Sequence record: OQ850289
From: Escherichia phage vB_EcoM_ULIM3
DNA: 64,000 nt
Direction: 5' to 3' (one strand)
Shown: in pieces, positions 21,945 through 34,217 of the stretch
Layout of the letters: each line of letters begins with the position of its first letter
Numbering within the stretch: position 1 is the first letter of the stretch
Program-made: the position numbers and the translations under genes
The notes under the pieces: generated by a model
The model's input: only the letters and a program-made list of their open reading frames with translations
Database searches by the model: none
Told to the model about the DNA's origin: nothing

Positions 21945-29960
<8,016 letters not shown>

Positions 29961-29962
29961 TA

Positions 29963-31135
29963 ATGGCAGTAGGTGAAATTCAAATTAGTGCCTTGCCTCA
30001 AGCATCCTTACCAATTGACCTTAGTGATATCTTCCATCTTAAGCAGGGTATTGAGGATAAGAGGTGTACTCTTGAGCAATTACTTGCTCCACACGCAAGC
30101 CTAAGAAATAACCCTCATGGTGTTACTAAAACACAAATTGGTTTAGATAATGTTATTAATGCTCTTCAGTTAGTCGCTGAAAATAACTTATCAGATATTG
30201 TTAATGTAGCTGAGGCAAGAGCAAATCTACAGATTATGTCTTCAGAAGAGGTTAATAACCTTGTCCAGCAACATATCAAGGACAAGAGTAACCCACACAA
30301 TACAACTAAGGCACAGGTTGGTTTAAGTAATGTTCAGAACTGGACAACATCTAATCTGTATAACGAAGATGCAGATAAGTATGCTACAGCAAGAGCAGTA
30401 AATAACTTGTACAAGGCTGTTCAGGCTTCTTATCCAGTAGGTACTATCCATCTTTCTATGAACTCTGCAAACCCTTCCACATACTTAATTTGTGGAGGTA
30501 CTTGGGAGTTAGTTTCAAAAGGCAGGGCATTGGTTGGCTATGACTCTGATACAAGACCAGCAGGTTCTGTATTTGGCGCTTCAACTGTCACTTTGTCAGT
30601 TAATAACATACCTCAGCACTCCCACTCTGTGTCTCTTAGCGGTGGTGGTCACACTCATAATGCAACTGTGTCAATTTCAGCTTTTGATTATGGGACTAAG
30701 ACTACAAACTCTTTTGACTATGGGACAAAAGCTACTAACACAACTGGTAACCATACACACAGTGTGTCAGGTAACACTAGCACCAATGGTACTCACAACC
30801 ATGATGTGTATCCTAGAGAAAATGATGGCACTGGTAATGCTGTGGCTGACTCTGATGGTGGTGGTGCAAGAAGGACATCAAGGACTTCTAGTGATGGTGC
30901 GCACTCACACAGCTTTAACGTCACATCTGGTGCATCAGGTGACCACAGCCACACGGTTGGTATTGGTGCTCACAGTCATACAGTTGGTATTGGTTCACAT
31001 ACGCATAGTGGCACTGTAACAGTTTCTTCTTCTGAACATACACATAGTGGCAATACAAATAGTGTTGGTGGAGGTCAGGCAGTTAATATTGAACAGCCAT
31101 CCTTCGTACTGTATGTATGGCAGAGAACAGCTTAA
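29963..31135 (+). CDS. tail fibre protein with C-terminal His-x-His repeat tip
   Basis: nine HxH motifs (HSHS, HTHN, HTHS, HNHD, HSHT...) in last ~170 aa; C-terminus similar to next gene. Confidence 0.65.
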   Translation: MAVGEIQISALPQASLPIDLSDIFHLKQGIEDKRCTLEQLLAPHASLRNNPHGVTKTQIGLDNVINALQLVAENNLSDIVNVAEARANLQIMSSEEVNNLVQQHIKDKSNPHNTTKAQVGLSNVQNWTTSNLYNEDADKYATARAVNNLYKAVQASYPVGTIHLSMNSANPSTYLICGGTWELVSKGRALVGYDSDTRPAGSVFGASTVTLSVNNIPQHSHSVSLSGGGHTHNATVSISAFDYGTKTTNSFDYGTKATNTTGNHTHSVSGNTSTNGTHNHDVYPRENDGTGNAVADSDGGGARRTSRTSSDGAHSHSFNVTSGASGDHSHTVGIGAHSHTVGIGSHTHSGTVTVSSSEHTHSGNTNSVGGGQAVNIEQPSFVLYVWQRTA

Positions 31136-31142
31136 TTTCTTT

Positions 31143-31166
31143 ACAGGGGCTTTATAGCCCCTTTTA
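31143..31166 (+). terminator. intrinsic terminator
   Basis: ggggc-tttata-gcccc followed by TTTT. Confidence 0.6.
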
Positions 31167-31181
31167 AGAGGAAAATTTATA

Positions 31182-33536
31182 ATGGCAGATTACAAATTGA
31201 GTGAGCTAAACTCAATCGACACAATCCGTTCAGATGACCTTCTTCATGTCAGAGTTAAAAAGAGACCTGAAATGCTGGGTGATGAAGACCGTCGAATGAC
31301 CTATCAAGATTTCTTAGCATCTTTTAAGCTTGAAAGATTTGTTCAGATTGCTGGTAGCACTATGACGGGTGACTTAGGAATTGTTAAGCTACTTTACGGT
31401 GGCAAGGCTGTATTCGACCCCACAGGCTCTTCTGAGATTACTGTTGGTGATGTTTTAAAGACTTTTAAAATCAACGCAAACGGCCTTAAACTAACTATTG
31501 CAGACGCTTCAAGGTCGGCAACTGTTTATCATACTTTGAATAAGCCAAGCCCTAATGAACTTGGGATGAGAACTAATGAAGAGAATGACGCAAGGTATGC
31601 AAGACTAGCCGTGAATAATACCTTTAGAGGTACTCAAGCTATCCTCTCTGACAATGAAGCGCTCATTATTAAAAATATCACTCAAGGTGCTCCACTCTAT
31701 CTTCGTGGTCAAGATGCAGATGGTACTAACAGATGGTATCTAGGTAATGATAATAGGGGTACAAATAATCTTGTATTGAAGAATGTAAAGTCTGACGTTT
31801 CAATTGCTATTTTAGAGAATTTGGTGACAGTCAACAGAACTCTTCAAATTGCTGGCCAAGTTCAGCCTTCAAGTTTTGCTAACTTAGATGCTAGGTATTT
31901 TACCCAGACAGCAGCTAATCAGAGATTTGCGCAGTTAGCTGGCAATAATACATTTAGTGGTTCTAATATTTTCACTAATTTTGTTATTAAGAAGAATGCT
32001 AATGCTATTACTATTCAAAATGTAGATACAACTGCGGCTTTGTATATCCAAGCAAGGAAATCAGATGGAACTAATAAGTGGTACATTGGTAATGATGGTG
32101 ATGAAAACATTGTAAACATCTATAACTATTTAGCAAAAACACAAATCTCATTAGGTAACACCATTACCATGAGCAGAACAGTCCAAATTGGTGGTCAAGT
32201 ACAACCTTCTGATTGGACTAACATTGATTCTAGATATATTCCGGCAGCCACTTTGAGTAATCTCCCTAAACTTAATGTGTCTAATACTTTTACAAATGTG
32301 CAAACTATTGTATCTAACAACGAGGGTTTGGTATTAAGGAACTTGACACAGGGGCAGCCACTATATATCCGTGGTGTTGATACTGAGAATGTTTCTAGAT
32401 GGTGGTTAGGTGTAGGTGGTCCAAACTCTAATGTGGTAACACTTAACAACAACTATTCTGACACTAAAATCTCACTTGGTGGCTCATCAGTAATGACTAA
32501 TAAGAGCTTAGCTATTACTGGTCAAGTACAACCTTCTGACTTCTCTAACTTAGATGCTAGATACTATACCCAAGCTGCCGCAAACGCAAGATATATGCTT
32601 GCAAGCATCACTGGTTCGGCTTCTGAAGCAGATGGTGGTGATGGTGTTGCATGGGATGCAAAAACAGGTCTTTATAAGGTTACTAACACCACTGGACAGT
32701 CTTCTTCACTTGTATATCACATGTTTTTAGGGACTAGTTCTACACCATCTGCACAATTAAAGTTTTCGTTTAAAAATGGTGGGATGTGGTATAGAACATC
32801 AAGAGATGCCTATGGCTTCGAAGTTAATTGGTCTAAAGTTTACACGGAAGCACAAAAACCAACCCCTTCAGAGATTGGTGCATACACTAAAGCTGAAACT
32901 GACCAGAAAATTGCAACAGCAATTAGTGACTCTACAGACCTTAACAAAATCTATCCAGTTGGTATTGTAACGTGGTTTAACAGTAATGTTAACCCTAATA
33001 CAGCACTCCCTGGTCTAACTTGGACGTACCTGAATAATGGTGTTGGTAGAACTATCAGAATCGCAGCAGCAAACGGTTCAGATGTTGCTACAACTGGTGG
33101 TTCAGATTCTGTGACATTAGCTGTTGGTAACTTACCATCACACACTCACAGTTTCTCTGCTACCACTTCATCTTTTGATTATGGTACGAAGAACACTAAC
33201 AGTACTGGTGCACATACCCATTCAGTTAGTGGTACTGCTGCATCTGCTGGGCAACACGCACACAGAATTTCACAGGGTGACAACGCTAACGTTTCATCAG
33301 GTAGAGTCGCATCTTCAAACTCTGCTCAGACCCATGTTGGTTGGACTGAAAATGATGGTGTTCACACCCACTCAGTTAGTGGTACTGCTGCATCTGCTGG
33401 TGGACATGCTCACTCTGTAGGTATTGGTGCTCATAGCCACACAGTTAGTGGTAACACTGGTGGTACAGGTTCTGGTTCAGCATTTAGTGTTACTAACCAG
33501 TTCTACAAGTTAATGGCTTGGGTAAGAACTGCTTAA
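31182..33536 (+). CDS. long tail fibre protein with internal repeats and His-x-His tip
   Basis: 784 aa; three repeats of GQVQPS..NLDARY.TQ.AAN; C-terminal HTHS/HAHS/HSHT motifs paralogous to 29963-31135. Confidence 0.7.
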   Translation: MADYKLSELNSIDTIRSDDLLHVRVKKRPEMLGDEDRRMTYQDFLASFKLERFVQIAGSTMTGDLGIVKLLYGGKAVFDPTGSSEITVGDVLKTFKINANGLKLTIADASRSATVYHTLNKPSPNELGMRTNEENDARYARLAVNNTFRGTQAILSDNEALIIKNITQGAPLYLRGQDADGTNRWYLGNDNRGTNNLVLKNVKSDVSIAILENLVTVNRTLQIAGQVQPSSFANLDARYFTQTAANQRFAQLAGNNTFSGSNIFTNFVIKKNANAITIQNVDTTAALYIQARKSDGTNKWYIGNDGDENIVNIYNYLAKTQISLGNTITMSRTVQIGGQVQPSDWTNIDSRYIPAATLSNLPKLNVSNTFTNVQTIVSNNEGLVLRNLTQGQPLYIRGVDTENVSRWWLGVGGPNSNVVTLNNNYSDTKISLGGSSVMTNKSLAITGQVQPSDFSNLDARYYTQAAANARYMLASITGSASEADGGDGVAWDAKTGLYKVTNTTGQSSSLVYHMFLGTSSTPSAQLKFSFKNGGMWYRTSRDAYGFEVNWSKVYTEAQKPTPSEIGAYTKAETDQKIATAISDSTDLNKIYPVGIVTWFNSNVNPNTALPGLTWTYLNNGVGRTIRIAAANGSDVATTGGSDSVTLAVGNLPSHTHSFSATTSSFDYGTKNTNSTGAHTHSVSGTAASAGQHAHRISQGDNANVSSGRVASSNSAQTHVGWTENDGVHTHSVSGTAASAGGHAHSVGIGAHSHTVSGNTGGTGSGSAFSVTNQFYKLMAWVRTA

Positions 33537-33615: not shown

Positions 33616-33813
33616 ATGCCTACAATCCTAGCAATTCTTCTAAAAAATCTAGGCAGCTTCTTCTGGAAACTCATTTTATCCCTTCTAAGTGAATACATGA
33701 TTGAGAAAGTGTTCTTTAAGCTTGCAAGATACCTTGCGAGTAAAACAGACACACCTATTGATGATGAGTTCGTAGATAACTTAGAAAAAGCTTTTAAGGG
33801 GGAGAATAAATGA
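33616..33813 (+). CDS. small membrane protein (holin-like, speculative)
   Basis: 65 aa; N-terminal hydrophobic segment, charged C-terminus. Confidence 0.35.
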   Translation: MPTILAILLKNLGSFFWKLILSLLSEYMIEKVFFKLARYLASKTDTPIDDEFVDNLEKAFKGENK

Positions 33814-34181
33814 AGTGGCTAGAGGAAGCTTTTAAAAATAATATTGGTGCAATTGTAGTTGGTATTTTTAGTGTTATTGGGATGTATACCACGATGCAAG
33901 TTTCAAGTGGTAAACAAGAAGTGTCTGTCACAACAAAGTTACAGCAGCTAGATAATTATTCCAAAAGTAACTATTCAGCTATTCGTGATTTACAGTCTGA
34001 CATGAGACTGATTCAGCTAGGGATGGAGAACCAGAAAGTTCAGTTAGAGAATGTTAAGGGTGAAAACGCAAAACTTACCAAAACTCTTGATAAATTCTCT
34101 GACAGTGTGAACAATCTGGCTCAATCAGTATCAGCCTTGCAAGCTATTACTGAGAAGAACACAAAGAATACTGAAAAATAA
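33810..34181 (+). CDS. membrane-anchored coiled-coil protein
   Basis: 123 aa; N-terminal TM helix then coiled-coil heptads. Confidence 0.35.
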   Translation: MKWLEEAFKNNIGAIVVGIFSVIGMYTTMQVSSGKQEVSVTTKLQQLDNYSKSNYSAIRDLQSDMRLIQLGMENQKVQLENVKGENAKLTKTLDKFSDSVNNLAQSVSALQAITEKNTKNTEK

Positions 34182-34185
34182 AATT

Positions 34186-34217
34186 TTAAGGCTCCTTTTT
34201 ACGGGAGCCTTTTTTGT
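34186..34217. terminator. bidirectional intrinsic terminator at convergent gene junction
   Basis: ggctcc...ggagcc hairpin flanked by A-tract upstream and T-tract downstream. Confidence 0.7.

Follow-up and report, generated by a model that had tools for sequence, protein, structure and literature searches.

Short and long tail fibres of Escherichia phage vB_EcoM_ULIM3 with probable metal-binding tips of the T4 gp37 type

Fibre tips of the type found in T4 gp37 have already been described in Felixounavirus phages, both for the genus and for a phage nearly identical to the one considered here. The subject of this analysis is a pair of adjacent ORFs, ORF A and ORF B, at positions 29963-33536 (3,574 nt) in a 64,000 nt stretch of the genome of Escherichia phage vB_EcoM_ULIM3 (sequence record OQ850289), hereafter the window. 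The two ORFs very probably encode the short tail fibre (STF) and the long tail fibre (LTF), the lateral fibres of a Felixounavirus myophage, each with a gp37-type metal-binding tip. Sequence searches, alignments of homologues, structure models of the monomers and the literature were used. All coordinates are positions in the window; both ORFs and all of their parts listed below are on the forward (+) strand.

In T4 gp37, the needle (domain D11, residues 882-1009) is an insertion in the collar (domain D10, residues 811-881 and 1010-1026), and the chain runs out along the stem, through the tip and back, with residues 882-931 and 960-1009 forming the stem and 932-959 the tip (PMC6957217). Seven iron atoms are present, and each His-x-His (HxH) motif provides the six histidines of one buried site in the trimer. 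These histidines lie buried along the three-fold axis. The receptor-binding residues are found in the tip, which is free of histidine; H929 and H931 are essential (PMC6957217).

Among the Felixounavirus phages, the 2015 paper on VpaE1 reported that residues 146-362 of gp74 and 584-780 of gp75 are homologous to the T4 gp37 adhesin, and that the receptor is a periodate-sensitive, proteinase-resistant carbohydrate of the truncated lipopolysaccharide (LPS) core (PMC4690856). The residue ranges found here for ORF A and ORF B are the same. For Bas63, cryo-EM and modelling (2025) showed that the terminal part of both fibres consists of a gp37-like collar followed by a needle with HxH motifs and a head, and that the chain doubles back. 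Di-His motifs number six for the LTF and seven for the STF, and the receptor-binding tips are highly variable (PMC12609058). The homologue in wV8 carries the older annotation "tail fiber protein GP37".

Fibre genes and their homology to the gp37 tip

The region containing the two ORFs is identical (100% DNA identity) to that of Escherichia phage vB_EcoM_ULIM8 (Ounavirinae, Felixounavirus), in whose record both ORFs have the same boundaries and are labelled "tail fiber", and it shares 99.6% DNA identity with VpaE1_ev108. Matches were found in 240 phage records, nearly all of them Felix O1-like and from phages of Escherichia, Salmonella, Citrobacter and Shigella. Both ORFs are present exactly where a preliminary description of this DNA, made from the sequence alone, had placed them. 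ORF A (29963-31135) encodes the 390 aa STF, which is the ortholog of Bas63 gp26 (80% identity) and VpaE1 gp74 and belongs to PHROG 2097, tail fiber (E=1.7e-138). ORF B (31182-33536) encodes the 784 aa LTF, the ortholog of VpaE1 gp75 and of Bas63 gp27 (67% identity, 784 aa each), and matches PHROG 4277 over its full length. No NCBIfam family was found for either fibre or for the adjoining ORFs. Upstream of ORF A are a Baseplate_J gene (489 aa), a gene for a baseplate protein of ~285 aa and a 100 aa ORF. The fibre genes are the same and in the same order as in Bas63 (gp26/gp27) and VpaE1 (gp74/gp75), and the gene order, as well as the gene lengths, correspond to gp23-gp27 of Bas63 (accession number MZ501086), namely wedge 2, wedge 1, LTF platform, STF and LTF.

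When all PDB sequences were searched with phmmer, the best match of ORF A was the T4 gp37 tip, 2XGF (E=4.8e-29, aa 146-362), and 2XGF was the second-best match of ORF B (E=3.8e-14, aa 648-763). In the reverse direction, a tblastn search of the window with T4 gp37 returned only two matches, to the tips of A (E=1.5e-29) and B (E=2.9e-18). The two tips are also related to one another, as the preliminary description had proposed for the C-terminal ends: aa 157-341 of A align with aa 591-755 of B (38% identity, E=7e-28), and each protein ends in W-x-RTA. Its suggestion that these are gp37-like, metal-binding receptor-binding tips had been based on motif resemblance, and is now supported by sequence homology to 2XGF.

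ORF A contains nine HxH motifs, the number given in the preliminary description, at aa 219, 230, 264, 278, 314, 328, 337, 346 and 359, and all 18 histidines in the last 175 aa are in HxH pairs. For ORF B seven motifs had been counted. However, there are six, at aa 654, 678, 692, 728, 742 and 751, together with a lone and weakly conserved histidine, H718. The needle of gp37 includes seven, at 883, 915, 929, 966, 980, 989 and 998. In a three-way alignment, all seven align with motifs of A (219, 264, 278, 314, 328, 337 and 346), and the motifs of A with no gp37 counterpart are 230, in the outbound stem, and 359, in the return stem. Six of the seven align with the six motifs of B, where an equivalent of H998 is missing. 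The spacings are 11, 34, 14, 36, 14, 9, 9 and 13 in A, 24, 14, 36, 14 and 9 in B, and 32, 14, 37, 14, 9 and 9 in gp37, so that a core register of 14, 36/37, 14, 9 is common to all three. This register and the homology are read directly from the aligned sequences.

The arrays are rich in Ser, Gly and Thr, as had been noted earlier. These residues make up 48% of the array in A and 44% in B, compared to 21% and 26%, respectively, of the remaining protein. When the His-rich tails were shuffled, the mean number of HxH motifs was 1.7 for A and 1.2 for B, and the observed numbers were reached in 1 (nine motifs, A) and 20 (six motifs, B) of 100,000 shuffles. With whole-protein shuffles they were never reached for either protein.

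Conservation was assessed using 74 STF and 119 LTF homologues recovered in a metagenome-scale protein search. Each of the 12 histidines in the HxH motifs of B is retained in at least 99% of the 120 LTF sequences, and those of the return stem in 100%. In A, 10 of the 18 are conserved in at least 96% of sequences and the others in 69-83%, the losses being whole motifs that have been deleted or replaced. The number of HxH motifs among 75 STF sequences (A and the 74 homologues) ranges from 6 to 11, and nine is the commonest.

Predicted needle topology and receptor-contact head

The N-terminal part of the STF (aa 1-145, 29963-30397) includes what should be the baseplate-binding region, a role taken from Bas63, and the shaft; identity across the 74 homologues is 0.63-0.87. 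The motif NPHxxTKxQ(I/V)GLxNV occurs twice in this shaft, at 30110-30154 and 30290-30334 (aa 50-64 and 110-124), 60 aa apart, and corresponds to DNA repeat D9 (spacing 180 nt). It is followed by the N-terminal half of the collar (aa 146-218, 30398-30616), a domain of the gp10/gp11/gp12 type, which is recognized by the Pfam model Gp10_C (63.9 bits, cut-off 27) and aligns with gp37 802-882 and with T4 gp10. The outbound needle stem (aa 219-280, 30617-30802) contains the motifs at 219, 230, 264 and 278, and the return stem (aa 314-361, 30902-31045) those at 314, 328, 337, 346 and 359. Between them is a segment free of histidine (aa 281-313, 30803-30901; DVYPRENDGTGNAVADSDGGGARRTSRTSSDGA, 33 aa) that aligns with gp37 932-965, a range in which the gp37 tip (932-959) is included. 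The C-terminal strand (aa 362-390 and the stop codon, 31046-31135) aligns with the C-terminal end of gp37 (...VWQRTA in A, ...IVRLA in gp37), is conserved in the homologues (identity 0.66-0.78) and would lead back to the collar.

Both stems of the STF contain short tandem duplications. In the outbound stem, FDYGTKxTN is found twice with a period of 30 nt (30683-30742, aa 241-260), and in the return stem a unit of the type HSHTVGIG is found three times with a period of 27 nt (30944-31009, aa 328-348). Such duplications are a plausible simple route to the variation in needle length seen among the relatives.

In the LTF, the shaft (31602-32606) is made up of three tandem repeats of ~110 aa (aa 141-253, 254-365 and 366-475) recognized by the Pfam model gp37_trimer (three copies, E=2.2e-62). 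The preliminary description had correctly reported three tandem repeats, but with a length of ~75 aa, and the period is 110-113 aa. The sequence GQVQPS occurs in them at aa 225, 338 and 447 (DNA family D2, spacing 339 and 327 nt), and in pairwise comparisons of the repeats 37-53 of ~115 residues are identical. Next is a knob (aa 480-585, 32619-32936) that matches Pfam gp37_C (E=8.3e-20) and PDB 8JU3 (E=3.7e-21). The N-terminal half of the collar (aa 588-653, 32943-33140) can be aligned with the collar of A and with that of gp37, including the invariant YP.G and G.TW; it scores 26.0 bits with Pfam Gp10_C, slightly below the cut-off of 27, and is almost invariant in the 119 homologues. The outbound stem (aa 654-694, 33141-33263) has HxH motifs at 654, 678 and 692, and the return stem (aa 728-753, 33363-33440) has them at 728, 742 and 751, with a Pfam Phage_fiber repeat at aa 724-736. 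They flank aa 695-727 (33264-33362; RISQGDNANVSSGRVASSNSAQTHVGWTENDGV, 33 aa). The C-terminal strand (aa 754-784 and the stop codon, 33441-33536), which ends ...MAWVRTA, aligns with those of A and gp37, would likewise return to the collar and is invariant in the 119 homologues.

The segment that separates the outbound HxH motifs from the return motifs is predicted from the alignment to be the receptor-contact head, i.e. aa 281-313 in A and aa 695-727 in B. Because the chain would double back, contact with the receptor is expected at this head in the middle of the array, and the conserved C-terminal end would return to the collar and not to the tip. The lengths of the heads are 33 aa in A, 33 aa in B and 34 aa in gp37. 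In the homologues, variability of the STF is highest in the head, with an identity of 0.14-0.24 and an entropy of ~3 bits (aa 281-310) compared to 0.5-0.9 elsewhere. The LTF head is a variable island within the tip, with an identity of 0.45-0.57 (aa 691-720) and flanks of at least 0.97. Among 120 LTF sequences, a head of 33 aa was found in 50, including ORF B, and one of 45 aa in 53, while the stems were constant at 41 and 26 aa.

Relative to gp37, the outbound and the return stem of A are each longer by 13 aa, and those of B are shorter by 8 and 9 aa. Among the 75 STF sequences, the lengths of the outbound and return stems co-vary (r=0.93, 13 distinct combinations), with pairs that include 42/31, 58/44, 62/48, 66/53 and 68/52. 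Both the variability and this co-variation are direct observations. In a hairpin, the two stems need to change length together. A chain that doubles back to give a six-stranded needle in the trimer has indirect support, from the head lengths, the matched insertions and deletions and the correlation of stem lengths.

In the arrangement proposed, each fibre would be a homotrimer with the N-terminus docked on the baseplate, the STF on a wedge protein and the LTF on a trimeric platform encoded by the ORF at 29658-29960, roles that are taken from Bas63. This 100 aa ORF (+ strand) is the counterpart of Bas63 gp25 (bas63_0025) by synteny and length and belongs to PHROG 4141 (E=9.5e-62). Bas63 gp25, the LTF platform, is the attachment point of the long fibre (PMC12609058), and by synteny the product of 29658-29960 would have the same role. 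The C-terminal 200-245 residues of each fibre would form a gp37-type tip composed of collar, needle stem and head. In the stem, each chain would run out and back, so that three chains give a six-stranded beta needle, and each HxH motif would place two histidines per chain at the three-fold axis, where six histidines would bind one metal octahedrally (Fe2+ in gp37). Nine buried metal sites are predicted in the needle of the STF and six in that of the LTF, and their role would be a structural one, holding the strands of the trimer in register like staples and determining how stiff it is. The 33-residue heads at the turn would contact the host receptor, which is the LPS core in the Felix O1-like group. 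Since A and B have different heads, the fibres may have two specificities, or fibres of different length may bind in two steps. For the geometry of the trimer, the identity of the metal, the binding of LPS by these two heads and which fibre binds first, the proposal relies on the homologues.

Several observations weigh against this reading. Full-length monomers modelled with AlphaFold2 (AF2), using alignments of 56 (A) and 40 (B) sequences, were of low confidence. The mean predicted local distance difference test (pLDDT) score was 63.6 for A, with a predicted template modelling (pTM) score of 0.30 and values below 50 in the head, and 48.4 for B. The collar was the best part of the STF model (pLDDT 75-89), and only this collar and the repeat domains of the LTF were modelled with moderate confidence. 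A Foldseek search of the PDB with the STF model found nothing significant, 2XGF included. The best match was the C-terminal domain of gp10 (E=0.27, probability 0.54). A null result is to be expected when an intertwined trimer is modelled as a monomer. Since the monomer models are poor, the metal-binding geometry we infer comes from the alignment. In the Bas63 maps, the fibre density was insufficient for building side chains (PMC12609058). With respect to the identity of the metal, the HxH site of T4 gp12 was crystallized with Zn (PMC6116203). Finally, folding of the T4 fibre depends on the chaperone gp38 and on gp57A, a property of the T4 system and not of the fold. A tblastn search of the window (E<=0.01) found no homologue of T4 gp38, and the two small ORFs that follow the LTF gene (33616-33813 and 33810-34181) have no significant match in Pfam or NCBIfam and none to a chaperone or adhesin family, which implies that folding must differ somehow from that in T4.

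Competing explanations and related fibres

One alternative is that a separate adhesin, or a chaperone that is retained, caps the needle and sets the specificity, as in T2- and S16-type phages. The gp38 protein of T-even phages of the T2 type is an adhesin on the tip of gp37, and here the LTF gene is in every case followed by two small, conserved ORFs to which no function is assigned. However, these ORFs (65 and 123 aa) have no match to an adhesin or chaperone family, and a gp38 homologue was not found in the window. Moreover, both fibres keep a head of the length found in gp37 that is hypervariable, as expected if it is the adhesin itself, and in the Bas63 paper each fibre tip terminates in a head domain, with no mention of a cap protein (PMC12609058). 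We therefore consider a cap very unlikely.

It is equally improbable that, on a gp37-like fold, the histidine sites are themselves a functional surface for receptor binding or for the capture of iron or siderophores, as in the 'Ferrojan horse' proposal. Fibres with HxH motifs have been proposed to use iron ligands for attachment (PMC11705849), and the number of sites per virion would be large, ~54 and 36 for the STF and LTF if there are six fibres of each kind. However, the histidines of gp37 are buried on the axis and its receptor residues are in the His-free tip (PMC6957217). The segment that varies in the fibres examined here, and so would determine specificity, is also the His-free head, whereas the HxH motifs are conserved, and the receptor of VpaE1 is a periodate-sensitive carbohydrate of LPS (PMC4690856).

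The least credible explanation, that the HxH arrays are low-complexity slippage repeats with no specific role in metal binding and a likeness to gp37 that is only compositional, could draw on the 44-48% Ser+Gly+Thr, the tandem duplications of 27 and 30 nt and the open alternative frames that are typical of repeats, but can be set aside because the histidines are conserved (12 of 12 in B and 10 of 18 in A at the levels given above) amid varying neighbours, the spacing is identical to that of gp37, the 2XGF match also spans the non-repetitive collar, and HxH counts as high as those observed arise in no more than 20 of 100,000 shuffles that preserve composition. An origin of the array by chance or from low-complexity sequence was rejected on the basis of the 2XGF match, the conservation of the histidines and the shuffles.

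The alternative-frame ORFs arise from the codon composition of the repeats. The larger, at 30534-31019 (161 aa, + strand, +1 offset), is located within the needle region of the STF and is not a gene. In the window, the frame stays open for 168 codons, but this shrinks to 110 codons in two relatives with 93-96% DNA identity and to <80 in Salmonella phage VSe11. It has no NCBIfam match and is not annotated in the identical ULIM8 record. The designation of this ORF as a repeat artefact in the preliminary description was therefore appropriate, and a real gene at this position was rejected. A second ORF of this kind (98 aa, 33124-33420), with the same +1 offset, overlies the needle of the LTF.

Several differences from the described systems can be listed. 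The closest, the Bas63 STF, has seven HxH motifs compared to nine in A, lacks equivalents of those at 264 and 278 and has another head. In the LTF, the motif proximal to the head is QHAH in B and HHxH in Bas63. T4 gp37 shares homology with A and B in the collar, stem and head, and the C-terminal end would go back to the collar in all three. Relative to the gp37 needle, that of A is predicted to be two metal sites longer and that of B one site shorter. However, T4 has much longer, multi-protein fibres, whereas the tips of A and B are on single-protein fibres, and no homologue of gp34, gp35 or gp36 was found in the window (tblastn). The receptors also differ, as only the LPS core is reported for the Felix O1-like group, whereas T4 uses LPS or OmpC.

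Comparison with both gp37 and R-pyocin fibre tips had been suggested in the preliminary description. The first comparison yielded the 2XGF matches described above and HxH motifs in register. The second did not yield a relationship. R-type pyocin and P2-like fibres, and spike proteins that have a single HxH iron site, use the same His6-Fe chemistry, with three HxH motifs arranged octahedrally on the trimer axis (PMC6116203). However, the R-pyocin fibre has a single HxH site, a knob, a shaft and a C-terminal lectin foot and no hairpin needle (PMC6116203), and no R-pyocin fibre chain matched A or B in the PDB search (E<=1). Membership of the R-pyocin fibre family was rejected on the grounds of both sequence and architecture, and the resemblance is an analogy only. 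Membership of the gp12 family was also rejected, as no T4 gp12 chain is among the PDB matches of A or B (E<=1); the name 'short tail fibre' is based on length and was adopted from the Bas63 paper.

The LTF knob is related to another fibre, as residues 330-430 of tail fibre S of phage Mu (PDB 8JU3) match aa 480-581 (E=3.7e-21). Unlike in Mu S, this domain of the LTF forms a knob within the chain, ahead of the gp37-type tip. There is no Mu-type C-terminal receptor-binding domain, and no chaperone-family match was found. The knob is the second variable block of the LTF, with an identity of 0.43-0.54 among the 119 homologues and flanks of at least 0.9, and may be a second specificity module or a module for mosaic exchange. 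For LTF homologues of 841-855 aa, the alignment covers only 60-66% of the query, and these proteins do not contain the gp37_C Pfam domain.

The gp37-type tip module is widespread. A search with the tip only (A 146-390) retrieved 6,703 cluster representatives at E<=0.001 and 503 at E<=1e-10. The matches are mostly C-terminal, in proteins of ~200 to ~1,200 aa.

Neighbouring elements and implications

The 46 nt gap between the STF and LTF genes contains a GC-rich hairpin (GGGGCT TTAT AGCCCC, 31146-31165, + strand) followed by TTTT and then by the ribosome-binding site of the LTF gene. In AYO145A, a rho-independent terminator is annotated at the equivalent position. However, a scan for consensus promoters and terminators around the fibre genes revealed no excess over the shuffled expectation and did not call this hairpin. 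The hairpin could lower the expression of the LTF relative to that of the STF.

The two small ORFs located after the LTF gene, 33616-33813 (65 aa) and 33810-34181 (123 aa), are also found in ULIM8, AYO145A and Bas63, and the 65 aa ORF is at the edge of the locus in four more relatives. They belong to PHROG 402 and 4038, respectively (function unknown), and one transmembrane segment is annotated for each in AYO145A. They might act in lysis or in the assembly of the fibres. Beyond them, at 34188-34211, a hairpin (AAGGCTCC...GGAGCCTT) with T-runs in either strand resembles a bidirectional terminator. It lies between the late fibre operon and the convergent genes for thymidylate synthase and dihydrofolate reductase (DHFR). 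At the equivalent site, the annotation of AYO145A has a terminator for both strands.

The findings are not new in kind, as the VpaE1 paper of 2015 reported the homology and the Bas63 paper of 2025 described the architecture of the tip. The nine STF motifs compared to seven in Bas63, the range of 6-11 motifs with nine the commonest, and the co-variation of the stem lengths are small additions to the published work. It could also be argued that the length of the STF needle is tuned and evolvable, given the range in HxH number and the stems that change together, and that the fibres fold without a recognizable chaperone of the gp38 or Tfa type. We regard this as rather unlikely. If it were true that the number of metal sites sets the reach or stiffness of the fibre and the host range, or that the fibres are self-chaperoning, this would go beyond what has been published on the genus.

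For the engineering of host range, the targets would be the 33-residue heads (A 281-313 and B 695-727) and not the C-terminal ends, and the HxH stems should be left intact. This map of predicted specificity determinants concerns a group of phages that is used in diagnostics and biocontrol of Salmonella and E. coli.

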